This document shows positions 6,474 to 40,316 of a stretch of DNA of 64,000 bases, in pieces. Numbering within the stretch: position 1 is the stretch's first letter; every line of letters starts with the position of its first letter. The stretch comes from Candidatus Dojkabacteria bacterium (GTDB lineage: Bacteria; Patescibacteriota; Dojkabacteria; SC72), in NCBI GenBank assembly GCA_012513575.1, contig JAAZBX010000002.1, positions 104,574-168,573 of the forward strand, in the 5' to 3' direction. The notes under the pieces were generated by a model. The model saw nothing but the letters and a program-made list of their open reading frames with translations. It was not told where the DNA came from and searched no databases. A program made the translations under genes and the position numbers.

Positions 6474-6484
6474 GTTTTCTGTCT

Positions 6485-7030
6485 CTAATCAAAGCATTCT
6501 CTTAGACTTCTCCAAGCTTCTATAATTATCTCTTTGTCGTCTCTTAATCTTTCTGAAGCAAATTCCAAAGCCACTCCATTATTTTTAACAGCTTTCAAAA
6601 CTACCTCTTTATCATTTTTTAATTCATCGGAAGCATATTTTAAAGCAAAACCATAACTTTCAACTACCTCAGTGACAATATCTTTATCATTTTTTAATTC
6701 ATCTGTCGCATATTCTAAAGCATTTGGATTTTTTTGAAGTACCTCTATCATAAACTCCCTATCACTTCTTAACTCATCAGAAGCAAATAGTAAAGCTTTG
6801 CCATTTAGTATTTCCCATGGTGATATTAAACCTTCTGCCTCGCTTGTAATTGCAGTCATCACAACTTCCCTATCATTTTTTAATCTTTCTGAAGCATATT
6901 CTAAGAATGTTCCTATTTTCTTAACGACTTTTAAAGTAATCTCTTTATCCTCCCTGAGAGCTGGAATCTCATGGTATTCCTTAACATAATCAGGAGTACT
7001 TAGTTCTTGTTCTAACTCCGAAGTTTCCAT
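6485..7030 (-). CDS. DUF4116-type repeat protein
   Basis: It contains at least four tandem repeats of about 35 aa, of the form A(S/T)DELKNDKEVV...ALE(Y/F)AS. Confidence 0.55.
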   Translation of the reverse strand: METSELEQELSTPDYVKEYHEIPALREDKEITLKVVKKIGTFLEYASERLKNDREVVMTAITSEAEGLISPWEILNGKALLFASDELRSDREFMIEVLQKNPNALEYATDELKNDKDIVTEVVESYGFALKYASDELKNDKEVVLKAVKNNGVALEFASERLRDDKEIIIEAWRSLRECFD

Positions 7031-7109
7031 ATCTATATCATCAAAAATAAAATATATGGGGAGTTTGTGTATATATTATATAACAATTCTCTTTGGAGTC
7101 CAATTATAG

Positions 7110-7790
7110 TCATTCTTTAGGTTTTCTGTCTCTAACAATGTATCCTATACCATGTACTGTCTCAATGACATTTCTGTCTTCAAGTTTACTTCTCAGTCTG
7201 TTTATATGCACATCGATTGTGTTTGAACCTATATACTCTCTATAGTCCCAAACATGATCGAGCAATTCACACCTTGAAATTGGTCTGTCTTTATTTCTTA
7301 CCAAATACTCAAATAGGTCATATTCCTTATTCCTAACTTCAATATCCTCATTTCCCTTTTGTATGCTTTTGCTATTAGTATCCAAGACTAAGTTTCCAAG
7401 ATAAAGGTTGTTATCTATATACGATTTAGGTCTTCTGCTTACTGATTGAATTCTTGCTAATAACTCTTGCATAGGAAAAGGATATGTAAGGACATCATCT
7501 CCTCCATGGTTTAGAAAATTCACTTTCTCAGGCCAACCACCATTATTACAAACACCCAAAACTTTTGTTTTAGGGCAATGCTTAATTATGTAAGAAAGTA
7601 TTTCCTCGCTCTTGTTGCCTGAAAGTTTTGTGTTTAATATTACAAACTCAAAAATCCCATCTTTGACGTATACCTTACTACCAAAATTCTCATTATCTAA
7701 AGTCACTTTATATCCGTATGAATCAAGAGTTTTTTCTATAATCTGTGAAAGAGTGGAAGAATTCTCTATAATTAAGATATTCATTCGCAA
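7110..7790 (-). CDS. Atypical OmpR/PhoB-family response regulator with a degenerate receiver domain and a winged-helix DNA-binding domain
   Basis: The C-terminal trans_reg_C domain is intact (RCELLDHVWDYREYIGSNTIDVHINRLRSKL...GIGYIV). The receiver-like N-terminus lacks the acidic pocket (ENSS instead of DD) and the phospho-acceptor Asp (VILNTKL). It also lacks the conserved T and K positions. Confidence 0.7.
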   Translation of the reverse strand: MRMNILIIENSSTLSQIIEKTLDSYGYKVTLDNENFGSKVYVKDGIFEFVILNTKLSGNKSEEILSYIIKHCPKTKVLGVCNNGGWPEKVNFLNHGGDDVLTYPFPMQELLARIQSVSRRPKSYIDNNLYLGNLVLDTNSKSIQKGNEDIEVRNKEYDLFEYLVRNKDRPISRCELLDHVWDYREYIGSNTIDVHINRLRSKLEDRNVIETVHGIGYIVRDRKPKE

Positions 7791-7861
7791 AAAGTGTAAA
7801 ATTAATAGGCAAAGCTTAATTTTATATATATGTATAATTAAATCCTAGTAAACGAACATTT

Positions 7862-8230
7862 ATGAAATTTACTTTTACTTTTTTCTTTCTTTTAGGCTTT
7901 AGCGTAAGCTTCTTGTATTATTTATTTCAAAACCAAACCTTCCTTCCAACTGTTTCTTTGCATGAAGTAAATTGGAGTAACTTGTTTGTATTTGTAACCT
8001 TCTCTCTTCTCTCACTTCTCTCTCTCTTAAATTTGATTTTCTATCATTCATACAAAATATTTAAGAAAGAAATGCCCGAGAAATTAAGAATCAGAGAAAG
8101 TGTTAAATTCTCCCTCTTCATTTCTTTAGGTATTCTTGTTGTTTTCGCGTTACACATCTTCCACATAATCAGCTTCCCTTGGGGTATTGGAATCCTTGTT
8201 GTTCTACTGTTACTCTTTTTTGTGGTATGA
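7862..8230 (+). CDS. Hypothetical small multi-pass membrane protein
   Basis: It is a hydrophobic 122-aa ORF with no recognisable motif. It could be spurious. Confidence 0.3.
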   Translation: MKFTFTFFFLLGFSVSFLYYLFQNQTFLPTVSLHEVNWSNLFVFVTFSLLSLLSLLNLIFYHSYKIFKKEMPEKLRIRESVKFSLFISLGILVVFALHIFHIISFPWGIGILVVLLLLFFVV

Positions 8231-8915
8231 TAAACCAAGAAATATGGAAAATGACAGCATGGAAAAATTAGCAGATTTCTTAACAGGAGAGAAAGCTCTT
8301 CGAGATAAGGAGCAAAGTATTGAGAATGCAAAGAAAGAAGCTATTAAAGAGGAAAAAAACAAAAGAAGGAGAGATATTGTAGAAGGCAAAGCGAAATTAA
8401 AAGAAGATCCTGTTCAGAAAAAGAAGGTTGTCCAAAATATTAAACTTTTTGAATGGTCCGCTCCAGAAAGGTATCAGATCAAGCTTCAAAGCAAGAACTT
8501 TTTAATCATTGTTGTTATTTCACTTCTCTTTATCTCCCTTCTTGCTGTTCTTGGTAAATATTATCTTATTGCTGCAATAATTTCTGTCCTTTTTGTAATA
8601 TATGCTGCTGGTAGTACCAAACCTTTAATTGCAAAACATAAAATTACTGCAAGGGGGATAGAAACTGTTGGGAAACTGTATGAATGGTATATGCTTGAAG
8701 ATTTCTACTTTTGTAAAAAGGGAAATATGTATACTCTGCTTGTTCAAACAAAATTGAACTTCCCTAAAGCATTAGTATTACTTTGTAATGAGAAGGACAA
8801 AGACCCAATATTTGTAATTCTTCAAAAGAAACTTCTGTACAGGGATATTAGAAAGAAACTAAGCAAAGTTGATGTTCTTTCCTTTGGAGAATATGTTCCA
8901 TTAGAGAGAATCTAA
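8187..8915 (+). CDS. Hypothetical membrane protein with a lysine-rich coiled-coil N-terminus and two TM helices
   Basis: The true start is probably the internal Met near 8244 (MENDSMEKLADF), which would avoid overlap with the previous ORF. No known motif was found. Confidence 0.35.
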   Translation: MESLLFYCYSFLWYDKPRNMENDSMEKLADFLTGEKALRDKEQSIENAKKEAIKEEKNKRRRDIVEGKAKLKEDPVQKKKVVQNIKLFEWSAPERYQIKLQSKNFLIIVVISLLFISLLAVLGKYYLIAAIISVLFVIYAAGSTKPLIAKHKITARGIETVGKLYEWYMLEDFYFCKKGNMYTLLVQTKLNFPKALVLLCNEKDKDPIFVILQKKLLYRDIRKKLSKVDVLSFGEYVPLERI

Positions 8916-8930
8916 CGTTAAAGTTTCTGA

Positions 8931-9587
8931 ATGAAAAAAGTTCAAAAGAATTTAAATATCGAGAAATTAAGGAAAAACTTTTCCCATTTGTTTGTTGGAA
9001 TGGATTTGCAGAAAACAGAGATTGAATTCTTGTTTTCTGAATTAAAAGAAATGTATGAACAGGAGGGTAGATATTACCATAATTTGAAGCATATTGAGAG
9101 AATGCTTTCTTTTTTAGAAAGAAGAGTAGACAGAATAGAAGATTGGGTATCTATTCAGCTAGCTGTTTGGTTTCATGATTGTATTTATGATATCCATGAC
9201 AGTAAAAATGAAGAAAGAAGTGCCGATTTCGCTAGAAAAAGACTATCCGATTTAGGAGTATCTGAAGATCTTGTTGAGAAAGTAGCAGATTTAATTCTTC
9301 TTACGAAAAAGCACGAGATTACGGCAAAACATTCTAATTATGACACCAAAATCTTTTTAGATTCAGACCTTATGTCTTTGGGAGGTAGTTTTGAGGAATA
9401 CAGCAAGATATTTGAAAGAATTAAAAAAGAGTATTCTGAAATTCCTAGTGAAGTATTCAAGAATGGTAGAAGAGTATTTCTCCAATCAATTCTTTCAAAA
9501 CCAAGAATATTTTACACAGATGAAATGTTTTTAGAATTTGAACAGGATGCAAGGAGAAATTTGGAAAGGGAGTTAGTTAGCATTTAG
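8931..9587 (+). CDS. HD-domain metal-dependent phosphohydrolase-like protein
   Basis: It carries an H...HD metal-binding signature (YHNLKHIERM ... VWFHDCIYD). Confidence 0.5.
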   Translation: MKKVQKNLNIEKLRKNFSHLFVGMDLQKTEIEFLFSELKEMYEQEGRYYHNLKHIERMLSFLERRVDRIEDWVSIQLAVWFHDCIYDIHDSKNEERSADFARKRLSDLGVSEDLVEKVADLILLTKKHEITAKHSNYDTKIFLDSDLMSLGGSFEEYSKIFERIKKEYSEIPSEVFKNGRRVFLQSILSKPRIFYTDEMFLEFEQDARRNLERELVSI

Positions 9588-9613
9588 ATTTCCGTGGTAT
9601 AATGATGGATATT

Positions 9614-9700
9614 GGAGAGATGCCTGAGTGGTTGAAAGGGAAGCTCTCGAAAAGCTTTGTTTGGTTTTCCAAACCGGGGGTTCGAATCCCTCTCTCTCCG
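9614..9700 (+). tRNA. tRNA-Ser (anticodon CGA)
   Basis: The acceptor strands GGAGAGA and TCTCTCC pair. The anticodon loop is CTCGAAA, there is a long variable arm (GTTTGG...CCAAAC), and the T-loop is GGTTCGAATCC. CCA is not encoded. Confidence 0.85.
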
Positions 9701-9708
9701 TATACAAG

Positions 9709-10122
9709 ATGAAAAAAGAAATAGATAAAACACACTGGACAATTCAAACCTTAGTATTTTTGACAATCATTCCTATGTTTGTTTTTCTTAATCAGATCGT
9801 CCCTTCTGAAGAGATTTTCTCTTTCAAAGAAGCAACCTCTCTTCTCTTCCTTCCCTCTCTACTTTCTATTTCTTTGGTAATGATTTCACTCTTTTGTAAC
9901 AGGAGAAAGCTCTTTTCAAAGGAGTATTGGTATTTGAATGATTTTGTTTACTGGAATATTTTTTCTTGCACTCTTTCCTTAATAGCAATTTTTCACGGCA
10001 TTAACAGTAAAGTATTTCCACTAATATTCTCCCAAGTCTTTGCATATATCGCTCTTCTTCTTGGTTATGCAAATGAACTTAGAAATGAGATAATAGAGGG
10101 AAAATTTAAGAAAGGAGAATAA
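9709..10122 (+). CDS. Hypothetical multi-pass membrane protein
   Basis: The ORF-track start at 9628 lies inside the tRNA-Ser gene. The plausible start is the Met at 9709 (MKKEIDKTHW). The protein is hydrophobic. Confidence 0.4.
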   Translation: MKKEIDKTHWTIQTLVFLTIIPMFVFLNQIVPSEEIFSFKEATSLLFLPSLLSISLVMISLFCNRRKLFSKEYWYLNDFVYWNIFSCTLSLIAIFHGINSKVFPLIFSQVFAYIALLLGYANELRNEIIEGKFKKGE

Positions 10123-10848
10123 ATGCAATTACCAAAATTAAAAAGATATCAAAAGAAGTATGATTTTTCGTATGCATTTGGTGCATATCCTGTACTTGAT
10201 CTTTTAAAATACCGAAAGGAGAAAGTACTTAAGATTTTTGTTAAGAGTGAGGGATTACAAAGTGATGGGATATCTGAAATTTCAGAGATTTGTAAAAAAG
10301 AAAATATTTCATTTGAAGAAAATAACCGATTGATTGACAAGATAGCTTATAAAGAGAATACATATGTGGTGGGTGTTTTTGAGAAATATGAATGTATTTT
10401 AGAACAGAATGAGAACCATATTGTTCTTGTAAATCCAAGTAATGCGGGTAATTTAGGGACAATAATTAGAACAATGATTGGTTTTGATTTTAGAAATCTT
10501 GCAATTATTAAACCAGGTGTAGATATTTTTGATCCTCTTGTTGTCAGGTCTACGATGGGGGCGTTGTTTGGAATCAACTTTAAGTATTTTGAGAGTTTTA
10601 AGGGGTATACAGAGGCTTACAAGGCACACAATTTGTATCCCTTTATGTTGGATGGAGCAAAGAATATTCTTGATATTGATTTTAAAGAACCTTTTTCATT
10701 TGTGCAGGGGAATGAGGGTAAGGGATTAGATGCCGGTTTCAAAGATTTCGGAGAGAGTATATATATTCCACACTCAGAGAAGATAGACTCTTTGAATCTT
10801 TCAGTCGCAACAGCTATTGGTATGTGGGAGTACAGTCGAAGAAAGTAG
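10123..10848 (+). CDS. TrmH/SpoU-family RNA 2'-O-methyltransferase
   Basis: It has the SPOUT motifs LVNPSNAGNLGTIIRT, VQGNEGKGLD and LNLSVATAIGMWE. Confidence 0.8.
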   Translation: MQLPKLKRYQKKYDFSYAFGAYPVLDLLKYRKEKVLKIFVKSEGLQSDGISEISEICKKENISFEENNRLIDKIAYKENTYVVGVFEKYECILEQNENHIVLVNPSNAGNLGTIIRTMIGFDFRNLAIIKPGVDIFDPLVVRSTMGALFGINFKYFESFKGYTEAYKAHNLYPFMLDGAKNILDIDFKEPFSFVQGNEGKGLDAGFKDFGESIYIPHSEKIDSLNLSVATAIGMWEYSRRK

Positions 10849-11193
10849 TAGTTTTCCTTTGTGGTGATATAATGGGGGATTAATTTAATATTAATTAAAT
10901 ATGTTCCCCCTAAAAGTTTTAGAGATTTCAAAAGAGCAAAAGGAAAGATTTAACAAGTATTTTGTAGAAGAGGATGGTAAATTCATGTTCAAAGGTATGT
11001 TCACTTTGTAGACCACTATACAGTCTTAACGGAGGGACAGAAAGAATATCTTGCGGTAGCAGATGCTTATCTTTGTGTTTCGAATACGTTACCAAGTAAT
11101 GAACTTGAGATATACGCAAACAAGATATATGAGGCATTAAAGAAAAACGGTTTCGTAGAAGCAGAGAAAGGTCTTTACAAGAAAGAGAATCTG

Positions 11194-12027
11194 TTGATTG
11201 AATTTAAGTATTTTGATGATCATCCCAAAAATAAAGAAGGTAATGTCTCGTTCCCCGCAGGCTATCGTTCATTAGACATATTTGTTTACTCTGAGGGAAA
11301 TGAGTTTGAAAGTCACTATGACAGAATGTGGGAACATTCTACAAAGATGTTTAGAATTCCAGATAAAAGGGAGAATCCTTTGTATGCAACTGATGTAAAA
11401 TTGATAGAGAAGTATCTCCCCGCACAGGTGGAAATGGGTTGTGGGCCATCAATTGAGGTTGGAATTCCTCCTCTACATGGAATGCACGAGACTTACAAAG
11501 TTCAGAATCACCTAACTCACAAATTCTACTTCGCTGATATGGATTATTTGATATTGCAAATTATCGAGAATCCTCTTGAGATGTATAAAAAGTTTTCAAG
11601 AGTCCCCATTCTATGTCTTACATCTGAACACTCTGATGCATATTTGAAGTTTAAAAAGTATTATGACAAAGGTTTGTTTGTAGGAACTGTATACAACAAC
11701 AATTTTGATAGGTTAGTTAAGAGATTAGATATTCCAGAATTTATTTTGCGAATATATGACAAAAAGAGGTATTTACCAAAGATTGATTTTGATCCAAAAG
11801 CAAAATCATTAATTTGTTTTGGTTCTCATGCAGATAGGAGAATGGTTCAAAAACAAGCAAGAGAGAAGGGTCTTCAAATTATATTTGTTGATCCAGAGGG
11901 TTTTGATACACCAAATGGATTTGATTCTTATCCAATAGAGGGTCCTAAGGATGGAGATATTATTTTCAAGATGCCATTCTCAGAATTTATGGATAAGTTT
12001 GATAAATATTTTGAGAAAAGAAACTAA
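11194..12027 (+). CDS. Hypothetical protein
   Basis: The ORF track begins at a TTG. The first in-frame ATG is at 11326. No motif was recognised. Confidence 0.4.
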   Translation: MIEFKYFDDHPKNKEGNVSFPAGYRSLDIFVYSEGNEFESHYDRMWEHSTKMFRIPDKRENPLYATDVKLIEKYLPAQVEMGCGPSIEVGIPPLHGMHETYKVQNHLTHKFYFADMDYLILQIIENPLEMYKKFSRVPILCLTSEHSDAYLKFKKYYDKGLFVGTVYNNNFDRLVKRLDIPEFILRIYDKKRYLPKIDFDPKAKSLICFGSHADRRMVQKQAREKGLQIIFVDPEGFDTPNGFDSYPIEGPKDGDIIFKMPFSEFMDKFDKYFEKRN

Positions 12028-12044
12028 CTTAGACAAAGTTCTGG

Positions 12045-12073
12045 TTGAGTGAAATTTGAAAAAATGGTATAAT
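12045..12073 (+). promoter_or_regulatory. Sigma70-type promoter with an extended -10 element, upstream of ssrA
   Basis: TTGAGT lies at 12045-12050. After a 17-bp spacer comes TGgTATAAT at 12065-12073, about 20 nt upstream of the tmRNA 5' end. Confidence 0.5.
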
Positions 12074-12094
12074 ACTAATGTTCTTTACAAATAT

Positions 12095-12501
12095 GGGGAC
12101 GTCAGGCTATCGACAGAAGCTTGATTCTAGTTATCACAAACCGTTTGTTAAGTTCGTTATTCTTAACACACATTATAAGTGTAAAAAATAAAATCGTCGC
12201 TTTTGCAGAGCAGTTAAAAGCAGCTGTTTCAGCTCCACTTTATAACTATAACTTTGCATAAGTTTAACTGATTAATTTCGGTTAATGTCTTTTATCCTTT
12301 TCCCTAATGAGGGATGTAAGACAGTCGTTATTAGGGTATGGTCTTCTATCAGGTCAGTAGGGTAGTAGATTGAAAAATATAACTGAGGAGATGTACTTTT
12401 TGTCTAATCTTTTAGGTATGTCTTACTAAACAAGAGTAGATATGTTTGTATATGGTGCTAGATGACACTTTTGGACATGGGTTCAATTCCCATCGTCTCC
12501 A
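12095..12501 (+). ncRNA. ssrA: tmRNA (SsrA)
   Basis: The 5' GGGGACG pairs with the 3' CGTCTCC to form a tRNA-like acceptor, and the T-arm is ATGGGTTCAATTCCCAT. An internal tag ORF reads GCT TTT GCA GAG CAG ... AAC TTT GCA TAA. Confidence 0.85.
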
Positions 12502-12526
12502 CATTGTAAAGATTTAAATGTGGAAA

Positions 12527-13697: not shown

Positions 13698-14324
13698 TTA
13701 AAGCGAAAGAAGTAGCACAACGATAATACCAAGCACCATAAATGGAACAAAGGGTATTTTTAATCCCTTAAACCTCTTTTTCTTGTAAGCAAGTATCAAA
13801 CCATAGATTAAAGCAGTAAAGATAGTAATATATAGCCAAAGTATTAAATTACTACTCCCAATTAAAAGACCACAGATAATTGCAATCCTAACATCTCCTT
13901 GTCCTAGTCCTTTCTCTTTAGTAATTACAACAATCAATTGAAATATCAGACCTAATATAATAGCTCCAATTAAATTCTCATAAGGGAGATAGAAGTAATT
14001 TCTTGTTACTTCAAGTCCCCAAGTACTTCCTTTAACTAGAAAAAAAGAGACATTCAAAAGTAAGAGGGTGATAATTAGATAAAGAGACACCTTTTGATCT
14101 ACCTCCATCGTTTTGAAATCCTTTAATGCGAGAAAGAGGAGCAGGGTAAATATGAGAAGAAGAATCAAAAGGATAAATACTGTTTTAAAAGAACAGGTGG
14201 AATTGAGAAGGACTTTAAAGCTTGCAAAAAGCTGTACTAGAATAAATACTGTGATACTTATGATCTCTTCGATTTTTAATTTCTCTTTAAATATTTGAAA
14301 TTTCAAATGGGTCCGAATTAACAT
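13698..14324 (-). CDS. pilD: Prepilin peptidase (A24 family, short form)
   Basis: It is polytopic with the A24 signature GLGQGDVRIAIICGLLIG. It sits at the end of the pilus operon. Confidence 0.7.
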   Translation of the reverse strand: MLIRTHLKFQIFKEKLKIEEIISITVFILVQLFASFKVLLNSTCSFKTVFILLILLLIFTLLLFLALKDFKTMEVDQKVSLYLIITLLLLNVSFFLVKGSTWGLEVTRNYFYLPYENLIGAIILGLIFQLIVVITKEKGLGQGDVRIAIICGLLIGSSNLILWLYITIFTALIYGLILAYKKKRFKGLKIPFVPFMVLGIIVVLLLSL

Positions 14325-14664
14325 TTAATTCTTTTAGGATATTTACATAATTATCTGAATCATCTGTTGCTGTTATGCTCAAAAGTTTAACTCCAGGTTC
14401 TCCAACCTTCTCAGCTATTATTGAATTGCAACTCCAACCTTCCTGAGTCATTGAGAATACTCCAACAAAGAGGTGGTCTCTTTTAATTTTGTATACACTT
14501 TCTTCAAGGCAGGTCTCAGCATTTATTTGGAGTATGTTACTGTCATAGGTCATTTTGCTTGTAAGGAGTAGTCCAATATTTTTGTAAACTAAATCAATTC
14601 CTGTTAGAAGAAGGATTGGTAATACTATTAATACGGTTGTTAGTGCAATATATCCTTTTTTCAT
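14287..14664 (-). CDS. Small pilus-associated membrane protein, possibly a PilX-like minor pilin without E5
   Basis: It has an N-terminal hydrophobic helix (KKGYIALTTVLIVLPILLL) and lies within the pilus operon. The assignment is weak. Confidence 0.35.
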   Translation of the reverse strand: MKKGYIALTTVLIVLPILLLTGIDLVYKNIGLLLTSKMTYDSNILQINAETCLEESVYKIKRDHLFVGVFSMTQEGWSCNSIIAEKVGEPGVKLLSITATDDSDNYVNILKELNVNSDPFEISNI

Positions 14665-14666
14665 TG

Positions 14667-15143
14667 TTATCTAATTATTGCTAAAAAACTTATCGTTTTT
14701 GATTGGCTATACTTGCTTCCCGATACAATCTCAACAGTTATCTTTGTTGCAACTACTTCATTTTTTCGATTTGTCACTGGTTCAAGATACATCTTTATTA
14801 CTTGTATATTACTTGGTGTAATGGGAATAGAGTTGTAAAGGATTCTAGAATTTTCCAAACGATATATCTTTTCCCCATCTTTGAGCATTACTGAGAGAAC
14901 TCCAGAGTCGTTGTTAAATATTGTATTGGTTGTATTAATACTTAAAGTTTTGCTGAATGTGTCCTGTATATGCTGGATTACGAAAGAAGAAGATTGCAGG
15001 GCAAGAACTCTACTTGCTGTTCTCTGGCTTGATTCTTGTGCGGAGAGCATGAATGAAACAATTATTATCATGATTGAAGCAGTAAGCCCTATGTAGAGAA
15101 CCGTTTCAAACAATGTTAATCCTTTTAATTTGTTACTTTTCAT
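14667..15143 (-). CDS. Prepilin-type N-terminal domain protein (minor pilin or pseudopilin)
   Basis: The true start is probably the Met at 15143 (MKSNKLKG|LTLFETVLYIGL). The cleavage site is G|LTLFE, with Glu at +5. Confidence 0.55.
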   Translation of the reverse strand: MKSNKLKGLTLFETVLYIGLTASIMIIIVSFMLSAQESSQRTASRVLALQSSSFVIQHIQDTFSKTLSINTTNTIFNNDSGVLSVMLKDGEKIYRLENSRILYNSIPITPSNIQVIKMYLEPVTNRKNEVVATKITVEIVSGSKYSQSKTISFLAIIR

Positions 15144-17061
15144 AGCTAATAGAGAGTTCCTTAAGTAAAGATGTTGTATCCGTATTTGAAACAAAGTCAG
15201 CTTTGTACTGGAAATATCTTCCATGGAGTGGAGCAGTAAGGTAGTAAATGCCTGTGGTTGAGTAGTAAGTATCCGGGGTGTTGTCTGGTCCCACCCAAGT
15301 GCTTCCTTCCATTGTAGCTGAGGAGCTTGCCCTTAGTTGAATTTTTAATTCAGAACCTACTGGAATTTCGGTATCTAAAGTTAAAGTGTAAAAAGTGGCA
15401 GTTTCGGAGGTAGTATCTAAAATTTTTGACAGATATTGACCAGAAGGAAGATATCCATAACCATCGTCTCCTCCGCCTCCGTTTCCTCCTTCAATTACTT
15501 TGAGCTCATTTGTTGAATCTGATGTAAGTACATATGTGTAAAGGTGTTCTCCAAGAATTACTAAATCCATGGAATTGATTGATGTTGAGATACTCAATTG
15601 CCCACATTGAGTGGCTGAGGTCCCTGTGGAGATATCAAGTACAATGTAGTCTGGGTTTCCATACCCACCCTCTCCTCCAATCATAACTCTGTTCTCTACC
15701 GCAGTAATTGAGCTTACAGCAAGTGTCCCTAGTTCGTATGAGAAAACAAGTGGGTATTCTGTATACTTGTTTGAGATATCAAGGACATAGAATTCGTGTC
15801 CAGCATTTGTGCTTGTCCCTACATATGCTTTGTTCTTGTCTAGGGAGATAAAGAGGGCAGTAGGGGTAATGCTTCCCAAATTTGCTTTGCCTACTAGCGT
15901 AATTGTGGGAGAATAAGTGTAAACTTTTAGGTTGTAAGTATCACCACTTACAGTGACATACATGAAATTTTCATCAACATACAAATCAGTTACCAAAGCT
16001 CCTCCGCCTCCTACAGAAACAGATCTTAATGTACTTCTTGATCCTGTTTTTACTGTAATATCAAAGAGTGTTACATTGTTTCTGTAACTTACAAATCCAA
16101 TATTCCCATATCCTGCGACATGTTGGCCATCAACATTCCCAGACAAATCATACCATCCGACCTCCTGATAGGGAGAAATATTTGTACTTATGATAGACAC
16201 CTCCTTTGAGTTTGTGTCTGACCCAATTAATGCATATCCATCAGGGAGAGCTTGTATATCATTGGTTTTTCCAAGATCGACATTCCCATTTACTGTTAAT
16301 ATTGGTTCTCCATTTGAATTCTCTGTTACTGTCGCCTTTACAAAAGAGAGACCTGAAGCGTTGTCCCCTGTTCCCATATATATGGTATTCCCATGGGTAG
16401 AAATTGTTTTTGCTACACCTTGTCCTGGCAGGTCAAAAGCATATGTACTAAGAGATGGCCTGCACCAATCAAAATACCTTTGGGGGGCAAGCCTTAATTC
16501 TCCTCCATATGTCTCTTGTGCTAGGGTATCGGTATATGTCCCTAGGTCAAAATCTGCTTTTGAAGTAAATACAACTGAATTAATATTCCAGTCATTTAAA
16601 AATAGCTTTGGAGTAAGTGTGTAAAGTTTCCCCAATCTATCTCTCCATTGGATATTAATATCTACAGTTCTTGTATGAGGATCTAGCGTGCCACCCTCGC
16701 TGACTATCTCCCCCAAGTTATTTCTGTAGGCATACGAGATGGTAAAAAAGTAGTTTAAAGAATTTTGAACTCCAGGACCCTCAGCTATACTGTACGTTCC
16801 GTCAACAAACTCGATATGCCTTTCTCCTCCATCTGTTTCTTTGGAAATACCAAACCACTCCTCAGATTTAACAAATTTTAGAGCGGAGTATATATCCCTC
16901 GTTAAATTTGCAGCATTTGTCCTTTTCTCAATATTTTCATATGCTCTTGTGGCATCTACCATCAAGAAAATCAGAAAAGAAGATATAACCGCAAAAAGTC
17001 CAATAGAGAGAACTATCTCAGTTAAGCTAAAACCTTCCAATTTTTTCTTCTTTTTATTCAT
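15133..17061 (-). CDS. Giant 642-aa prepilin-type protein, a putative pilus tip or adhesin subunit
   Basis: It has a class III signal (MNKKKKKLEG|FSLTEIVLSIGL) followed by about 600 aa of Gly/Thr/Ser-rich, beta-rich sequence. Confidence 0.6.
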   Translation of the reverse strand: MNKKKKKLEGFSLTEIVLSIGLFAVISSFLIFLMVDATRAYENIEKRTNAANLTRDIYSALKFVKSEEWFGISKETDGGERHIEFVDGTYSIAEGPGVQNSLNYFFTISYAYRNNLGEIVSEGGTLDPHTRTVDINIQWRDRLGKLYTLTPKLFLNDWNINSVVFTSKADFDLGTYTDTLAQETYGGELRLAPQRYFDWCRPSLSTYAFDLPGQGVAKTISTHGNTIYMGTGDNASGLSFVKATVTENSNGEPILTVNGNVDLGKTNDIQALPDGYALIGSDTNSKEVSIISTNISPYQEVGWYDLSGNVDGQHVAGYGNIGFVSYRNNVTLFDITVKTGSRSTLRSVSVGGGGALVTDLYVDENFMYVTVSGDTYNLKVYTYSPTITLVGKANLGSITPTALFISLDKNKAYVGTSTNAGHEFYVLDISNKYTEYPLVFSYELGTLAVSSITAVENRVMIGGEGGYGNPDYIVLDISTGTSATQCGQLSISTSINSMDLVILGEHLYTYVLTSDSTNELKVIEGGNGGGGDDGYGYLPSGQYLSKILDTTSETATFYTLTLDTEIPVGSELKIQLRASSSATMEGSTWVGPDNTPDTYYSTTGIYYLTAPLHGRYFQYKADFVSNTDTTSLLKELSISYEK

Positions 17062-17515
17062 ATTCTATCAACCCCTCCTCATTTATACTTACTTTAACTG
17101 ATTGCGAACCTATTCCAACATATATGTTTCCAAAAGATACTGGCTTGAAAGAGTCATTTGGGAAGAGAATTGAGTTATCAGTTGTTAATGCTGTTGAAGA
17201 AATATATGTGTTTTTAGGAAGAACTTTTTCGTCTTTTTCTGTTCCTGTATCAAAGGAGTCCCCATCAAAAAGGTAATATCTTCCGTTGGTAAAATATATC
17301 CCTGTTGAGATATTTTTGCTTTTTGCTCTTTGTTGTTGATAGTAGATATCGGAAGCTATCTGAGAAGCGTACCCCTTTATCTTTGATTTTTGGACATTTC
17401 CAAGAGTTGTAGGGAATGTTAATGCCGAAATTAGAAGTAAAAGCCCCAGAGTAAGGATAATTTCAAGGAGAGAGAAGCCTTTCAAATCTTTTGTTTTTAA
17501 TTTTTTCCTAACCAT
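17054..17515 (-). CDS. Minor pilin (prepilin-type N-terminal cleavage/methylation domain)
   Basis: The N-terminus is MVRKKLKTKDLKG|FSLLEIILTLGLLLLIS, with Glu at +5. Confidence 0.6.
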   Translation of the reverse strand: MVRKKLKTKDLKGFSLLEIILTLGLLLLISALTFPTTLGNVQKSKIKGYASQIASDIYYQQQRAKSKNISTGIYFTNGRYYLFDGDSFDTGTEKDEKVLPKNTYISSTALTTDNSILFPNDSFKPVSFGNIYVGIGSQSVKVSINEEGLIEYE

Positions 17516-18707
17516 TGATAGTACCCATTAATTGATAGATTGGCATGAGAACAGTAATTCCCAGACCCCCAATTATTGCTCCTACCAAAATTAGAAGAAG
17601 AGGTTCTACGAATGTAACAATATTGTTGCTCATTTCAGTTACTTCTTCTGAGTAGAATTCGTGAAGGTACATGAGATTATCTTCCAAAGAGCCACTTACC
17701 TCACCGATATCCACCATTTTTACGAAAGAGGTGTTGAAATATTTAGGATATTCAGCAAGTGAGATGGAGAGATCTTTCCCATCATGGATACTTTGGTGTA
17801 TTTCTTTTAAGATCCCTGCATAGATGGAATTACTTGTCGTGGCAGAAGCGATTTCCATTGATTGCTCTAGAGGAATTCCACTTGCTAGAAGGACGCTTAA
17901 TGTCCTTGAAAAGGAAGCAAGAATGTTTGCGATAAAGAGTTTTTTGAGGATTGGGAAATGTATTGCAAGCCATCCGAGGAATTTTTTACCAGATTTTGTT
18001 TTAAGATAAAGAATAATTAAGGTAATAATGACTGCTAATATTGCAAATATATACATCCAATTTGTTCTAATGAACTTTGAGGCGCTCATTATGAAGAGAG
18101 TGAATTTAGGAATATTCTCAAAAGCCTCAAACATTGTTTCAAGTTTAGGAAGAACGATAAAGATCATTCCAAGAAATTCCATTAGAGTCATTCCCACAAT
18201 TATGACTGGGTAGATAATTGCTCCTTTGAGTTTTTTGTTTATCTCCCATTCTTTTTGAATTGTCTCCGCAACAAATATTAAGTTTTTTTCTAAGGAGCCA
18301 CCTTTCTCTCCAGCCTCGACAACAGAGGATATTGTTCTTGGGAATACTTTCGGAAATAGATTCATAGCTTTAGCCAAACTTACGCCTTTTTTTACTTCGT
18401 TGGATATATAGTCGTATATCTTATTTAAATTTTGATCACTTGATTGTCCAGAGATGGTCTCAATCGTTTCTGACAATGGGATTCCTGCTTTTAATAGGGC
18501 AGCTAGGGATTTAATTGAAATTAGTAGTGTAGGGACTTTAATCTTGTAACTCTGTAAAGTTTTTAGTAGCTTAGCTTTTTTCTTGTCCTCTATCTGAATT
18601 TGGCTTGTTTTTTCCTCCCCTATTGTCTCTTTGGTCTTAACGGCTTCTTCCTTTTTAACTTCTTCCACTAATTCTTCTTTTTTAGTTTGTTCCTTTTCTT
18701 CTTTCAT
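17508..18707 (-). CDS. pilC: Type IV pilus assembly platform protein PilC (GspF family)
   Basis: It has two GspF-type repeats (e.g. EAGEKGGSLEKNL and GEVSGSLEDNL) and three TM segments. Confidence 0.85.
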   Translation of the reverse strand: MKEEKEQTKKEELVEEVKKEEAVKTKETIGEEKTSQIQIEDKKKAKLLKTLQSYKIKVPTLLISIKSLAALLKAGIPLSETIETISGQSSDQNLNKIYDYISNEVKKGVSLAKAMNLFPKVFPRTISSVVEAGEKGGSLEKNLIFVAETIQKEWEINKKLKGAIIYPVIIVGMTLMEFLGMIFIVLPKLETMFEAFENIPKFTLFIMSASKFIRTNWMYIFAILAVIITLIILYLKTKSGKKFLGWLAIHFPILKKLFIANILASFSRTLSVLLASGIPLEQSMEIASATTSNSIYAGILKEIHQSIHDGKDLSISLAEYPKYFNTSFVKMVDIGEVSGSLEDNLMYLHEFYSEEVTEMSNNIVTFVEPLLLILVGAIIGGLGITVLMPIYQLMGTING

Positions 18708-20131
18708 TAATCTTTTATTGCAATAACTCTTATTAATTCTTTTATATCTATCATACCATCTGTTAATTTACTTACTGCATCTTCAACCATGAGTTTGAAG
18801 TCACCCTTTTTAGCTGTTGTCAGAATTGCATCCATTGAAGGGTTAGAAATAATGGTGTCCCTTAAAGGTTTATCTATATACAACAACTCATAGATTCCGA
18901 CTCTTCCAGAGTATCCAGTGTTGTTACATTTCTCGCAGCCTACAGCTTTGTAAAGTTTTTGAGAGGGTTTAACAAATTTCTGTAGGTCAGGTCGTAATTT
19001 AAGTAACTCTTTGTTCTCTTCATCTTTTTCTAGTACATACTCTTTTTTACACTCTTTACAAAGTCTTCTTGCAAGTCTTTGAGCTACAACAATATTCAAT
19101 GTAGAGGCTATCAGGAATGGCTCAATCCCCATATCCACAAGTCTTGGGATGGCACTTACGGAATCATTTGCGTGAAGAGTAGAGAGAACTAGATGGCCAG
19201 TTAATGCTGAGTTTACAGTAATTCTTGCGGTCTCAGTGTCTCTAATCTCTCCGACCATGATTACATTTGGATCTTGTCTTAGAATAGACCTTAATCCTGT
19301 GGCGAATGTTAAATCACTTTTCACATTTATCTGTATGTGGTTTACACCATCGATACTGTATTCAACAGGGTCTTCAATAGTGGTAATGTTAACCTCTCTA
19401 GTGTTTAGAATTTTAAGGATAGAGTAGAGGGTTGTTGTTTTCCCACTTCCAGTTGGGCCAGTTATGAGGATGAGTCCGTACGGTTGTCTGTATGATTTTT
19501 CTAGGAATTCTAAATCATGGTTACTGAAACCTAAATCAGACATAGAGTACGACTTATTGGCTTGAGTGAGCAACCTTATTACAACTTTCTCACCAAAAGT
19601 CACAGGCAATATTGATACTCTTGCATCAACATTGTATGTGTCTTTTTCTAGAGATTGAAATGCCTCTAAACGGTTTAATGTCTTTTTGATTTCCTTTTCT
19701 TTCTCTTTTTCTTCGTCTTTACCCCATCTGCTCTTTTTTGGCTTCTCTTCCTCTTTTGTCTCTTCTGCTTCTTTTTCTTCTTCCTCTTTCTCGTTCTCTT
19801 CCTTGGATATTGGTTCTCCATCGATTAAGGATTTTTTGAATTCAAAAGGAATTTTTCCATCCTGAGGTGTTAGATGAACATCTGTTCTTAACTTAGCTCT
19901 TACTTTGATAATAAAGAGTAAGCTTTCTTTTAATTCTGGGCCAATGGAAATTGTGTCTCTTAGTACACCATCAACTCTGTATCGTACTAAAAGTGCATTG
20001 TCTTCTTTTGACTCTATGTGAATATCAGAAGCTCTGCTCTTTAGGGCATCTAGGATTAAAGCATCAAGAAAGTCAGATATATTAATCTTCTTCTTGAGCA
20101 CATCATCCATTAATTCTAGTAGTTCAATCAT
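18707..20131 (-). CDS. pilB: Type IV pilus assembly ATPase PilB (GspE family)
   Basis: It has the Walker A motif LITGPTGSGKTTTL, Asp and His boxes, and a tetracysteine motif (CKECKK...CEKCNNTGY). Confidence 0.9.
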   Translation of the reverse strand: MIELLELMDDVLKKKINISDFLDALILDALKSRASDIHIESKEDNALLVRYRVDGVLRDTISIGPELKESLLFIIKVRAKLRTDVHLTPQDGKIPFEFKKSLIDGEPISKEENEKEEEEKEAEETKEEEKPKKSRWGKDEEKEKEKEIKKTLNRLEAFQSLEKDTYNVDARVSILPVTFGEKVVIRLLTQANKSYSMSDLGFSNHDLEFLEKSYRQPYGLILITGPTGSGKTTTLYSILKILNTREVNITTIEDPVEYSIDGVNHIQINVKSDLTFATGLRSILRQDPNVIMVGEIRDTETARITVNSALTGHLVLSTLHANDSVSAIPRLVDMGIEPFLIASTLNIVVAQRLARRLCKECKKEYVLEKDEENKELLKLRPDLQKFVKPSQKLYKAVGCEKCNNTGYSGRVGIYELLYIDKPLRDTIISNPSMDAILTTAKKGDFKLMVEDAVSKLTDGMIDIKELIRVIAIKD

Positions 20132-20200
20132 AACCCTAGGACAGCTAAGAGCTATCTGATATTCACTTTAAATACACAAAACACGTTATCTAGTAAGAAC

Positions 20201-20632
20201 CTATCTTCTTACTGAAATTACTTTTCCCTCTGCCCTTGGAGCAGCAATCTGAATCCTTGTACCTACTGTACAAATTGTGTAGCCAGTAATAGCATCTGTT
20301 CCATTTGTTGGATCTGTTGGGATTGAGACAATGTAGTCTTGATCCTCAGCTGTTAGAATTGTGAGGTCAATACCCTCCGTACCAATCGATGAAGGACCAT
20401 CAACATCGTCACATGATTTTATTCCTTCTGGGAGCTCATTCCTATCAGTTGTGTACTGTGTAACCGCATTTAGGATTGAGTTCACATCTGAGCTCCTCTG
20501 TGCATTTCTAGTATCCTTGAAGTTCTTTCCAGGATTGATAGCAACAATTGTTATTGTAGCAAGAATGATGATCAATGCTACAACAACAAGGATCTCGATA
20601 AGTGAGAAGCCCTCGTATCTTTTTCTACTCAT
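20201..20632 (-). CDS. pilA: Type IV major pilin (PilA-like)
   Basis: The N-terminus is MSRKRYEG|FSLIEILVVVALIIILATITIVA. Two C-terminal Cys residues are consistent with a D-region disulfide. Confidence 0.75.
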   Translation of the reverse strand: MSRKRYEGFSLIEILVVVALIIILATITIVAINPGKNFKDTRNAQRSSDVNSILNAVTQYTTDRNELPEGIKSCDDVDGPSSIGTEGIDLTILTAEDQDYIVSIPTDPTNGTDAITGYTICTVGTRIQIAAPRAEGKVISVRR

Positions 20633-20709
20633 AGAAAAATATATTAAATAAAATTAAGTACATATTTAATATACGAGGTAATCGAGAGTGTGTCAATTGT
20701 AAAGAATTC

Positions 20710-21537
20710 TTACTTAGCAAAATCTAAACTTCCAAGAATTGAATCTAAAGCAGTAAGTTCCTCTTCACTTGCATCTTGAGAAATCCACACATTAAAAAGT
20801 GGCACAGGACTTACTTCTTCAAGCCCTTTTAGTACTAACCAGTTACTTTCACATTGAGCCTCAAAAGTATTAGTACTTCTATCAGTATCATAGAATACTT
20901 TGGTTTCAACTCTTCTGAGTTCTGTACCAAACAGAGAGATCTCAGAATATTTTGTGTCTGTATAGTCAAGGACATTAGCTTGTATTCCGATTTCTTCATT
21001 TTGTTGATTCTGTTTCTCTTCAAAGTCTTCTGGGGAGTCTTTAAAAAGAACAATTTGAGAGCATCCTACACTCCCAACCCCATCAAGTATTTCAAGTCTA
21101 AAGATATTCTTGCTTTCGTGAGAGATCTCAAATTTTGTCAACCCACTATACTGAACCCCTTCGGTAACCATGTCGCTTTCTTCCCCATTTTTAAACTCTT
21201 TAATACTCCATCCTTGTGGTATTTCTGTGGTAAGATACTCACCTTGAAATTTTACTAATTCAGGTTCCTTTACAGTTTCTTCTTCTTTCTTTTCTTCCTC
21301 TTCTTCTATAGTATTGGTGGGGTTCTTTTCTGTAAAGTATCCTTCCTTAATAAAGATGTAAGTTCCCATTGCAATAACAGCAAAAAACAATATGAAGATT
21401 ATTACCATTAACCCTTTATTACCCTTTGTCTTCTTCTTCTCAACCTCGGCAATTGCTTCCTCCCCAGCTATGTTTACTTGATTATTCTCCTTAACAATCG
21501 TACCGTCCAAAGGAGTATTATTTGAATTCTCGTCCAT
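20710..21537 (-). CDS. Hypothetical membrane-anchored acidic protein
   Basis: It has a single N-terminal TM helix followed by a Glu-rich linker. Confidence 0.35.
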   Translation of the reverse strand: MDENSNNTPLDGTIVKENNQVNIAGEEAIAEVEKKKTKGNKGLMVIIFILFFAVIAMGTYIFIKEGYFTEKNPTNTIEEEEEKKEEETVKEPELVKFQGEYLTTEIPQGWSIKEFKNGEESDMVTEGVQYSGLTKFEISHESKNIFRLEILDGVGSVGCSQIVLFKDSPEDFEEKQNQQNEEIGIQANVLDYTDTKYSEISLFGTELRRVETKVFYDTDRSTNTFEAQCESNWLVLKGLEEVSPVPLFNVWISQDASEEELTALDSILGSLDFAK

Positions 21538-21586: not shown

Positions 21587-22645
21587 TTGGGATATGGTAA
21601 AATAATAAGCTATATTATTTTTTACAGCATTCATTTGAAAAAATTACTCATAGGAATTCTTTTTGTTTTGCTTTTTCCGATTCCTTCTTTTGCAAAGGAG
21701 CAAGTAACTCTTTTTTGGGGGGTCACATGTCCATACTGTCATACAGTAAGAGAAAAAATTTCTGAAGAGAAACTAGATGAGAAGATAGATATTGTTGAAA
21801 TTGAGCTACAGGAAAACAAGGAGAACTTACCTAAGTTTGAGGAAAAAATTAAAGAGTGTAATATTAATCCTCAGCAAGCGGGGATTCCAATGCTTTTTGT
21901 TGATGGAAAATGCTATCAAGGAGTTGACCCCATAATGGAAAAACTAAACGGTATGGTTGAAGGAAAAGATGTCAATGGCTCAATTGAGGAAATAGATTTG
22001 GTTGAAGGCAAAAGAAATACAGAGATAATGATTGGAATTGTATCTCTTTTTCTTGTTGTGCTCGTTTTGTTCGGATACTACAGACAGAATATGAAGACAA
22101 GCAGAAAGAAAGATGCAAAAAAATCAAAAAAGGTATACACCTTAATATTGTTTTTGCTAGCTCCTTTGTTTTTTGCTTCCAAAACATACGCCATATGTCC
22201 ACTATGTACCATCGCTGTGGGCGCAGGAGTAGGATTCTCAAGATCATTGGGTATAGATGATCTAATTGTAGGACTTTGGGTCGGAGGTCTTCTTGTTTCT
22301 AGTAGTATGTGGCTTTTCGAATGGCTAAAATCTAAAAAGATTGCAAAGAAGCACACTGAGACATATTGGGCTTTTGGTGCTGCAACGTTAATGTTTGCTC
22401 TAACTCTCATACCTCTAAAGATGGCAGGTATTATTGGTCATCCTTTTAACAAAATGTTTGGAATAGACAAGGTTTTGCTAGGGGTAGTAATTGGGAGTGT
22501 TGTATTTTTTGCTTCGGGGAGATTACACTTTTACCTCAAGAGTAAAAACAAGGACCAAGTATATTTCCCTTATCAAAAAGTTGTAATACCTGTTGGAGCG
22601 TTGTGGTTGACTACAATTATCTTGTATTTAATAGTATACTATTAG
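21587..22645 (+). CDS. Exported glutaredoxin-like domain (CPYC) fused to a polytopic membrane domain carrying a CPLC motif; putative thiol-disulfide oxidoreductase
   Basis: It has a signal peptide, a Grx-like active site (WGVTCPYCH) and the Grx motif GIPMLFVDGKCYQG. At least five TM helices follow, with CPLC at the start of a helix. Confidence 0.5.
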   Translation: MGYGKIISYIIFYSIHLKKLLIGILFVLLFPIPSFAKEQVTLFWGVTCPYCHTVREKISEEKLDEKIDIVEIELQENKENLPKFEEKIKECNINPQQAGIPMLFVDGKCYQGVDPIMEKLNGMVEGKDVNGSIEEIDLVEGKRNTEIMIGIVSLFLVVLVLFGYYRQNMKTSRKKDAKKSKKVYTLILFLLAPLFFASKTYAICPLCTIAVGAGVGFSRSLGIDDLIVGLWVGGLLVSSSMWLFEWLKSKKIAKKHTETYWAFGAATLMFALTLIPLKMAGIIGHPFNKMFGIDKVLLGVVIGSVVFFASGRLHFYLKSKNKDQVYFPYQKVVIPVGALWLTTIILYLIVYY

Positions 22646-38789: not shown

Positions 38790-38794
38790 AAAAT

Positions 38795-40309: not shown

Positions 40310-40316
40310 TTAAGAA

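Follow-up and report, generated by a model that had tools for sequence, protein, structure and literature searches.

Pilins that carry additional, non-pilin modules are a described kind of protein, and several type IV filament (T4F) systems that bear on the present locus have been characterized. The T4aP of S. sanguinis, which has PilT and PilMNO, displays the modular pilins PilB (vWA module) and PilC (Ig and ConA-lectin modules), both of them tip adhesins (Raynaud et al., 2021, PMC8179133; Shahin et al., 2023, PMC9934059). The survey of modular pilins published in 2021 also lists, in its Dataset S1, about 30 proteins that combine IPR012902 with 1 to 13 copies of IPR013211, which we confirmed to be LVIVD; the pilin+LVIVD architecture has thus been known since then (PMC8179133). 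Within the CPR, Nanosynbacter lyticus TM7x possesses a PilT-less T4P-2 with PilX2, a 7-bladed propeller pilin required for binding to the host (Grossman et al., 2025, PMC12206443). The Com pilus (T4dP) of Firmicutes, encoded by comGA-GG and comC, requires only eight genes and is capped by ComGD-GF-GE-GG (PMC12153270), and it retracts without a retraction ATPase (10.1101/2021.01.17.426607). In diderm T4aP, PilY1/PilC places a 7-bladed beta-propeller at the tip together with four minor pilins; it is a non-pilin protein with an IPR008707 propeller, and its docking is non-covalent.

Attachment to other microbes is the presumed way of life of CPR bacteria, with pili as the foremost candidates for locating a host and staying bound to it. 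We know of no host or attachment factor for Dojkabacteria and, to our knowledge, none of the LVIVD pilins has been studied. The locus described here belongs to Candidatus Dojkabacteria (WS6, CPR/Patescibacteria) and lies on the minus strand of a 64-kb stretch of DNA, the whole of which was analysed and is referred to below as the window. It is a self-contained minimal T4F system, a single tightly packed unit spanning positions 13698-20696, with eight co-directional, mostly overlapping genes for one major pilin, four minor pilins, an ATPase, a platform protein and a prepilin peptidase. The gene overlaps, of 1 to 38 nt, are consistent with translational coupling. All nine ORFs (the eight of the operon and one upstream gene) were found at the coordinates and on the strand given in an earlier note on this DNA, whose gene order had to be amended in the length of one "pseudopilin", in the label of one "small membrane protein" and in the membership of the upstream gene. 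The features are as follows:

20710..21537, minus strand: upstream gene for a 275-aa bitopic protein, no family match
20668..20696, minus strand: promoter-like site TTGACA-17-TATATT, 11/12 consensus, the best such site, in the 77-nt gap upstream of pilA
20201..20632, minus strand: PilA, major pilin candidate, 143 aa, leader MSRKRYEG/FSLIE, two Cys, N_methyl E=7e-6
18707..20131, minus strand: extension ATPase of PilB/GspE type, 474 aa, T2SSE E=6e-117
17508..18707, minus strand: platform protein PilC/GspF, 399 aa, T2SSF E=7e-50
17054..17515, minus strand: minor pilin, H position, 153 aa, conserved leader ...DLKG/FSLLE
15133..17061, minus strand: giant modular minor pilin, I position, 642 aa, leader MNKKKKKLEG/FSLTE, AF2 model with pLDDT 83
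16567..17061, minus strand: giant pilin aa 1-165, class III leader, alpha1 (13-67) and pilin beta-sheet (81-165), from the AF2 model
15481..16464, minus strand: giant pilin aa 200-527, seven-bladed beta-propeller of probable LVIVD type, 28 strands, from the AF2 model
15136..15450, minus strand: giant pilin aa 538-642, C-terminal beta-sandwich, strands 540-641, from the AF2 model
14667..15143, minus strand: minor pilin, J position, 158 aa, leader MKSNKLKG/LTLFE, start fixed by orthologues and independent gene calls
14287..14664, minus strand: fifth pilin-like protein, K position, 125 aa, N-terminus MKKG/YIALT, AF2 model with pLDDT 85
13698..14324, minus strand: prepilin peptidase, 208 aa, A24 domain only, Peptidase_A24 E=2.7e-12

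The features that define the T4F superfamily are all present, namely class III leaders, an A24 peptidase with two catalytic Asp residues, a T2SSE ATPase and a T2SSF platform; the family matches, the conserved leaders and the invariant Asp residues of the peptidase bear out the description of this stretch as a compact type IV filament operon. The translation of the ATPase shows a Walker A motif (GPTGSGKTT), a CxxC...CxxC tetracysteine motif and an E/K-rich insert at about aa 100-160, and its NCBIfam scores are highest for GspE (461 bits) and PilB (423), followed by ComGA (229) and the PilT family (155), all below the equivalog cut-offs. The platform gene overlaps pilB by 1 nt, and its product matches HofC, GspF, PilC and ComGB, again under the cut-offs in every case. 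The peptidase conserves D69 and GxGD144 invariantly in 22 orthologues and gave no match to the N-terminal PF06750; this short enzyme would probably cleave the leaders without N-methylating them. PilA, whose gene is the first of the operon and has an intergenic gap on either side, matches GspG, ComGE and PilA models in its N-terminal part and is the best-conserved pilin (mean identity across species, 60%).

The four class III leaders with Glu at +5 (G/FSLIE, G/FSLLE, G/FSLTE and G/LTLFE) are present exactly as first noticed and are conserved in orthologues. No other prepilin N-terminus with Glu5 exists anywhere in the 64-kb window, so their presence here is not a chance occurrence. The H pilin matches ComGD (E=2.7e-10) and GspH (E=8e-7), each below its cut-off. 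The J pilin had been listed as a 185-aa pseudopilin; orthologues and independent gene calls place its real start at an internal Met, giving 158 aa, and its gene overlaps that of the giant pilin by 11 nt, exactly as in the orthologues, with an N_methyl match in 11 of the 14 family members. The protein previously labelled a small membrane protein, encoded by the last of the four minor pilin genes, has a conserved pilin-type N-terminus with Thr instead of Glu at +5 and invariant C52 and C79, and its AF2 model is a pilin lollipop made of one helix (3-62) and five strands. With this fifth pilin the operon has the canonical four minor pilins, and by modelled fold, lack of Glu5 and gene position the 125-aa protein would be of the GspK/PilX/ComGG type. 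For the J and K pilins, PDB profile searches and Pfam scans of the individual family members recovered nothing beyond the N-terminal helix or N_methyl, neither sequence nor fold searches assigned them to GspJ/K or ComGF/G, and Foldseek found nothing significant for the K model, the best pilin match being the Thermus competence pilin TT_C0855 (E=0.16). From gene order and N-termini we infer that the four minor pilins correspond to the H-I-J-K set (GspH/I/J/K, FimU/PilV/W/X, ComGD/E/F/G).

The I-position protein is by far the most unusual component in size. It had been described as a pilin N-terminus followed by about 600 aa of Gly/Thr/Ser-rich, beta-rich sequence; the leader, the composition (11.9% Thr, 11.1% Gly and 10.1% Ser over residues 166-642) and the all-beta character in the model stand, and the non-pilin part is shorter, of about 475 aa. 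A class III leader and a pilin module fused to non-pilin domains make it a modular type IV pilin. The beta-propeller that had been anticipated appears in the AF2 model with seven blades, its strands running from residue 203 to 525; the only two Cys of the protein, C200 and C486, flank it and are both invariant, and an invariant Gly-rich linker (aa 525-537) leads to the C-terminal beta-sandwich. The sandwich gave no Pfam or PDB sequence match, and fold searches with the full model were dominated by the propeller. No Pfam family matches the giant pilin at E<=0.1, PF08309 is precomputed for 8 of 20 homologues, and in the loci it is mostly "faint"; neither a catalytic family nor a catalytic motif was detected. 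The homologues are full-length (622-655 aa, 25-90% identity), and the family counts at least 952 cluster representatives at E<=1e-30; among the best 148 of these 952, 112 measure 600-720 aa and most have class III-like N-termini. In more than 30 Dojkabacteria species the gene is intact and always occupies the same operon position.

This conservation extends to the locus as a whole, since the identical eight-gene order recurs in about 30 species, wherever the Dojkabacteria locus was of sufficient length. Across species, identity is 65-69% for the machinery and 40-41% for the giant and J pilins, the fastest evolving components. ENA ERZ795066 contains, at 100% identity, the full 7,840 nt that comprise the operon with the upstream gene, and JGI 3300026290 and Logan SRR5007707 match the last 2,897 nt of this stretch without a difference. 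The upstream 275-aa protein had been counted as an operon member, and a role as a PilN/O-like component was also considered. It has no family support, and its synteny is patchy: the gene precedes pilA in 14 fetched loci and was not detected in the closest relative (L004), its product is the least conserved (32% identity), and the promoter-like site, whose match to the consensus makes it a proposed candidate operon promoter, is located downstream of it. It is probably a separate, non-conserved unit outside the pilus system.

Seen beside the closest described proteins, the giant pilin resembles S. sanguinis PilB and PilC in its class III leader with Glu5, in the arrangement of a small pilin module, a short linker and bulky non-pilin modules, in belonging to a monoderm-type cell and in a predicted tip-only location within the minor-pilin complex. 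It differs from them in its cargo, a complete 7-bladed propeller plus an unclassified beta-sandwich, and the operon differs from theirs in having neither PilT nor PilMNO. With PilX2, set beside it by its published description, the giant pilin shares the status of a CPR minor pilin, a lollipop joined to a hepta-bladed beta-propeller and a pilus locus without a retraction ATPase, and the requirement of PilX2 for host binding is, by analogy, the function that we propose here (PMC12206443). PilX2 differs in its RCC1-type propeller and in having no predicted PilD signal, and the TM7x locus in its PilM2/N2/O2, as the Dojkabacteria operon is devoid of PilM/N/O. PilY1, against which the earlier note had proposed a search, may be seen as a functional analogue, with its 7-bladed propeller at the tip among four minor pilins. 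Homology was rejected, as no family match to PilY1 was found, PilY1 is absent from the top structural matches and the giant protein is itself a pilin, whereas the PilY1 type is defined by an IPR008707 domain in a non-pilin protein.

Other CPR loci help to separate the carrier from its cargo. At the same operon position, large pilins of other CPR share with the giant pilin the pilin module alone (hhalign probability 98%, columns 1-160), and the remainder of these proteins is unrelated to the propeller and has no family match. In further CPR loci, ConA-type lectin, fn3, Flg_new and DUF2341 modules are found on the large pilins of the H and I positions.

No PilT, PilMNO or secretin is encoded in the operon, as stated from the outset, and the same holds for the scans of the 64-kb window and of up to 10 kb around the operon in the other species; none of the components that define a T4aP (PilT/PilU, PilM/N/O, PilQ) was found there. 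A tblastn search detected no second PilB-family ATPase gene in the window, and the loci fetched from other species, with flanks of up to 10 kb either way, have none. The larger window ORFs scanned contained no PilM, N, O or Q and no match to PilM_2 or related families, and three PilM sequences from CPR, used as phmmer queries, had no match in the six-frame translation of the window or in any Dojkabacteria locus. Nor did any secretin family match in the window, in agreement with the CPR literature (PMC6744442). The absence had been called expected for a monoderm CPR cell, which is right for the secretin and does not apply to PilT and PilMNO: other CPR pilus loci (L042, L046, L051) carry PilM, and PilT and PilMNO have been reported as common in CPR (PMC6744442, PMC12206443). 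The PilM-less layout therefore appears as a lineage feature that resembles Com pili; the supplements of PMC12206443 make no mention of PilT or PilM for Dojkabacteria.

Taken together, we favor a minimal T4F machine with an H-I-J-K cap in which the giant I pilin serves as a tip adhesin that tethers the cell, a reading to which we assign a probability of roughly 60%. In this model the Glu5-less K pilin would enter first, and the minor pilin set would form a priming complex that ends up capping the PilA filament. The giant pilin would be anchored in this cap through its alpha1 helix, displaying the propeller and the beta-sandwich at the pilus tip as an adhesin that binds a ligand and most likely ties the cell to the surface of a host or partner cell. 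As neither PilT nor PilMNO is encoded nearby, the pilus might be a static tether or might retract without a dedicated motor, as Com pili do. By analogy with the characterized modular pilins, a role of the giant pilin as a pilus-tip adhesin is plausible. Its further designation as a specificity determinant is only an analogy: pairwise identity is uniform over its modules (0.44-0.49), the propeller being no more variable than the others, and a test for a diversifying module gave no signal per domain.

Because of its unusual size, the 642-aa ORF might be suspected of joining a minor pilin gene to a surface-protein gene through an assembly error or a frameshift, an idea that has nothing else in its favor and is refuted by the comparative data. 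The sequence is identical in independent assemblies, independent gene calls likewise give 642 aa, continuous, syntenic ORFs of 1.9-2.0 kb with 34-50% identity occur in more than 30 species, full-length relatives number in the hundreds, and the FSLTE leader is a real prepilin leader conserved in orthologues. More serious is the resemblance to the Com pilus. The operon has exactly its eight components without PilT or PilMNO, and in both systems four minor pilins make up the tip complex, the final one having no canonical Glu5. In size, the H, J and K pilins come close to ComGD/F/G. A competence (Com/T4dP-like) pilus would capture and take up DNA for a nucleotide-auxotrophic CPR cell, with the tip, possibly the propeller, binding DNA; we regard this as unlikely. 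The ATPase and the platform score higher on GspE/PilB and GspF/HofC than on ComGA and ComGB, with no cut-off reached by any model, and the ComG equivalog cut-offs are likewise missed throughout (ComGA 229/300 bits, ComGB 162/240, ComGC 18 vs. 75, ComGD 41/70, ComGE 20-26 vs. 49, ComGF a 13-bit match to the H pilin only, cut-off 80), ComGG giving no match among the operon proteins. The PilB/GspE-like ATPase has 474 aa and an N-terminal domain vs. the short ComGA, the I-position pilin has 642 aa instead of about 100, and the genes are arranged differently, that of the major pilin leading the operon and that of the peptidase being included in it. No link to DNA uptake genes was seen, and there is no ComEC-like protein among the window ORFs of >=400 aa. 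Furthermore, DNA binding in Com pili maps to ordinary ComGD/ComGF surfaces with no grafted module (PMC12153270), and the lectin modules found at these positions in sister CPR loci point to cell-surface ligands.

Another reading keeps the machine and sees the giant pilin chiefly as a structural subunit for priming or capping, comparable to PilY1 as an assembly factor or mechanosensor, or else as a pilus-borne enzyme; it draws on the uniform, moderate conservation with invariant Cys and Gly-linker features, which suggests structural constraint rather than diversifying selection, on LVIVD repeats being without known function (PMC10210494, PMC8179133) and on the peptidase modules of some modular pilins (PMC8179133). 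We consider it rather improbable, given the lack of any detected catalytic family or motif in the giant pilin and the adhesive role of the characterized modular pilins and of the TM7x propeller pilin (PMC8179133, PMC9934059, PMC12206443). It is highly improbable that the genes encode a T2SS-like endopilus pushing proteins through the cell wall instead of an external pilus. The top NCBIfam models of the ATPase, platform and major pilin are indeed GspE, GspF and GspG, with GspH jointly for the H pilin, and a retraction ATPase is missing; nevertheless, all these scores are far under the equivalog cut-offs, the locus lacks GspC/L/M, a secretin and any evident substrate gene, a tip pilin loaded with 50 kDa of propeller and sandwich does not easily fit a piston, and pili have been seen on CPR cells (PMC13293708).

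Starting from the favored tip-adhesin reading, a broader and so far tentative possibility is that the pilin-propeller-sandwich family is the main host-recognition adhesin of many CPR lineages, with the PilY1 function fused covalently into the priming complex and, in Dojkabacteria, mounted on an eight-gene machine free of PilM and PilT, the sole pilus of the lineage; if this were so, host range should be predictable from the surface of the propeller or the sandwich. The operon itself is a good example of the described pilins with added modules and leaves current concepts unchanged. In sister CPR loci one pilin "carrier" position bears varied cargo, which supports the published idea of module grafting and points to cargo type as a possible marker of host interaction to look for across CPR genomes. 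For Dojkabacteria, the operon provides a compact, very well conserved candidate attachment machine, and the propeller and sandwich constitute a single large surface module that could serve, once expressed, as a probe for the ligand or host.

The nine open reading frames placed by the earlier note on the minus strand at 13698-21537 are present as it gave them, and those assigned by family match (Pfam/NCBIfam) or by leader are, from pilA onward:

20201-20632, minus strand, PilA prepilin (N_methyl, E=7e-6)
18707-20131, minus strand, PilB/GspE-type ATPase (T2SSE, E=6e-117; GspE 461 bits, PilB 423 bits)
17508-18707, minus strand, PilC/GspF platform protein (T2SSF, E=7e-50)
17054-17515, minus strand, H minor pilin, ComGD/GspH-like
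15133-17061, minus strand, giant pilin of 642 aa, leader MNKKKKKLEG|FSLTE
13698-14324, minus strand, A24 prepilin peptidase

Against the PilT family, the ATPase reaches only 155 bits (NCBIfam). The operon encodes all four universal functions of type IV filaments (T4F), one major pilin and four minor pilins, a parts list equal to the eight genes necessary and sufficient for competence (Com) pili (PMC12153270). Prepilin N-termini with Glu at +5 (Glu5) are confined to the operon within the 64-kb window (regular-expression scan, six frames); its junctions, from pilB onward, measure -1, -8, -8, -11, +2 and -38 nt, and the 77-nt gap directly 5' of pilA contains the top sigma-70-like site (TTGACA-17-TATATT). 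In PilD-type enzymes the methyltransferase is carried by the N-terminal domain; this domain was not detected in the 208-aa peptidase, which shows the A24 domain only (D69 and GxGD144 invariant), so that the pilins of the operon may be cleaved but not N-methylated. In PilB, an E/K-rich low-complexity insert (approximately aa 100-160) follows the N-terminal domain and precedes the core of the ATPase; its length differs between orthologues (split tblastn alignments), and a recognisable MshEN domain takes its place in two more distant CPR loci (L050, L051).

Several gene assignments needed revision. The start of the J pilin ("pseudopilin") had been set too far upstream: orthologue frames opening just 1-3 codons ahead of a conserved MKNRLKG|xTLxE, together with independent gene calls of 157-158 aa, place it at an internal Met (14667-15143, 158 aa). 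The gene overlaps that of the giant pilin by 11 nt, the same as in locus L002, and 11 of 14 family members match N_methyl. The 125-aa "small membrane protein" begins with MKKG|YIALT (MKG|Y(I/V)ALT in most orthologues), lacks Glu at +5 and has two invariant cysteines, and its confident model (pLDDT 85) is a pilin lollipop of a 60-residue helix and a five-stranded sheet. The protein is therefore a fifth pilin (K), Glu5-less and placed last among the minor pilins in the manner of GspK, PilX or ComGG; sequence and fold searches gave no link to the GspK, PilX or ComGG families. Finally, the 275-aa upstream frame, which adjoins pilA in 14 of the fetched loci, has no family match, went undetected in the locus of the closest relative and is the least conserved of the protein set; it is treated here as a probable neighbour rather than a component.

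The operon is widely conserved. A 450,994-bp ENA contig matches the 7,840-nt stretch of upstream gene plus operon at 100% identity, two more assemblies contain the last 2,897 nt of this stretch unchanged, and the K pilin shows 100% identity with [quoted passage not shown]. When one genome per GTDB species was scanned, 43 loci proved to encode the giant pilin, some 35 of them from Dojkabacteria/WS6 MAGs, and the order pilA-pilB-pilC-H-giant-J-K-pilD recurs in every Dojkabacteria/WS6 locus long enough to judge. Averaged over the species, identity to the protein encoded here falls from PilB (69%), PilC (65%), PilA (60%) and K (54%) to PilD (52%), H (47%), J (41%) and the giant pilin (40%). The proposed absence of pilT and pilM stands as a local statement (64 kb here, up to 10 kb per side in other species): Dojkabacteria loci hold a single PilB-family gene within that distance, and phmmer with three CPR PilM queries found no PilM in the window or any Dojkabacteria locus. 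In several Dojkabacteria species (L006, L009, L013, L024, L029) a further, divergent gene for a PilA-like pilin (26-34% identity) lies apart from the operon, ~4-9 kb downstream on the opposite strand; the window has none.

The beta-propeller that the earlier note suggested looking for in the giant pilin appears in its AlphaFold model (pLDDT 83), where helix alpha1 (13-67) and a pilin sheet (81-165) precede seven blades of four strands each (28 strands, 203-525), followed by a Gly-rich linker modelled with low confidence and then a beta-sandwich (540-641). The sole cysteines, C200 and C486, are invariant and bracket blades 1 and 7 as a putative disulfide clasp. Pairwise identity is near-uniform among modules (0.44-0.49) and highest in the Gly linker (0.69), which is unusual for a merely flexible linker; this run, GGNGGGGDDGYGY (aa 525-537; 15451-15489), with several invariant Gly, joins the propeller to the C-terminal domain, for which no Pfam or PDB sequence match was found. 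Twenty word-indexed homologues are full length (622-655 aa, 25-90% identity) except one 413-aa fragment, and eight match PF08309 (LVIVD). A fusion artefact as source of the 642-aa frame was refuted. An exhaustive profile search returned 20,075 proteins at E<=0.001, a number that drops to 8,272 at E<=1e-10 and to 952 at E<=1e-30; weaker matches are probably other propeller proteins. Among the best 148 representatives, 112 measure 600-720 aa and the majority begin with a class III-like N-terminus, as does an inspected larger relative (P0121, 1,998 aa). The pilin family is large, unannotated and not restricted to Dojkabacteria. In L051, a PilB-PilC-...-PilM locus, the pilin at 6272-12268 is 1,998 aa long and has 11 matched propeller stretches, and P0176 (5,555 aa, 19 matched stretches) has a signal-peptide-like, not pilin-like, N-terminus.

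Elsewhere in CPR, the distant L050 and L051 show the order PilB(MshEN)-PilC-H-giant-J-K-(PilM)-major pilin. In L040 and L041 the corresponding position is taken by a pilin of ~590 aa that shares homology with the giant pilin over the pilin module only (hhalign probability 98%, columns 1-160), the rest of it being unrelated and without family match, and the large H- and I-position pilins of L042, L043 and L046 bear ConA-type lectin (Laminin_G_3), fn3, Flg_new and DUF2341 modules; a PilM_2 gene follows the K pilin in L042 and has a close homologue in L046. A carrier pilin with exchangeable cargo is therefore a general CPR pattern; loss of PilM from the locus, a first major pilin and a last peptidase are specific to Dojkabacteria.

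From T4F knowledge, the H-I-J-K minor pilins would form a priming complex ending as the filament cap (PMC9934059, PMC12153270), in which alpha1 would hold the giant pilin with propeller and sandwich exposed at the tip. It resembles the modular pilins PilB and PilC of S. sanguinis (PMC8179133, PMC9934059) and above all TM7x PilX2, a minor pilin that bears a hepta-bladed propeller, belongs to a pilus lacking PilT and is needed to bind the host (PMC12206443). By analogy with these pilins, the cargo most probably serves as an adhesin towards the surface of a host or partner. As no PilT is encoded locally, the filament may be a static tether, or may, like Com pili, retract with no dedicated motor (10.1101/2021.01.17.426607). 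The main alternative, a DNA-uptake pilus, would suit the Com-like parts list and the DNA scavenging attributed to CPR bacteria, but we consider it rather unlikely, as the machinery proteins score higher against GspE/PilB and GspF than against ComGA/GB, no genes for competence were seen nearby and the cargo at these positions is of lectin type in sister loci. A cargo with a purely structural or enzymatic role seems less probable still, and a T2SS-like endopilus very improbable.

Several other features of the window deserve mention. Divergent from the gene directly upstream, a 352-aa protein (21587-22645, plus strand) combines a glutaredoxin/thioredoxin fold (CPYC) and a multi-TM domain with CPLC, comparable to a CPR-enriched oxidoreductase family (PMC6744442); it is kept near the operon in L001, L002, L004, L016 and L019. 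As three of the five pilins contain two Cys apiece, no more and no fewer, this protein may be a disulfide-forming enzyme for pilin folding. The genes dnaA and dnaN lie ~7-10 kb from the operon (dnaN similarly near in L001 and L047), and the window also holds a tmRNA gene and a 968-aa Type ISP restriction-modification enzyme (jointly 3468-6473, 12095-12504 and 28575-31481). A tRNA-Ile with anticodon TAT, uncommon in bacteria, was located by ARAGORN (49661-49737, plus strand) near a tyrosine recombinase gene (50338-51225). Six tandem paralogous genes of 90-116 aa (38442-40640, plus strand; named together with 41054-42931 and 47115-49616) all match PF18895 T4SS_pilin/TrbC-VirB2 and are followed by genes for a diacylglycerol kinase, a 625-aa SpoIID-domain protein, a 789-aa protein without family and an 833-aa VirB4-like ATPase (DUF87/T4SS-DNA_transf). 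The set resembles the type IV secretion locus of monoderm type described from Patescibacteria and, if so read, would be a second surface-appendage system within the window.

Modular pilins were defined in 2021, with about 30 IPR012902 + IPR013211 (LVIVD) proteins in Dataset S1, one of which, with 13 repeats, is presumably the protein from Candidatus Falkowbacteria singled out in that paper (PMC8179133), and a CPR minor pilin that carries a propeller and has a host-binding phenotype followed in 2025 (PMC12206443). The operon is therefore a further, well-documented case, for which we infer the giant-pilin function by analogy, and its PilM-less, Com-like eight-gene layout and trimodular pilin-propeller-sandwich protein are modest variations.
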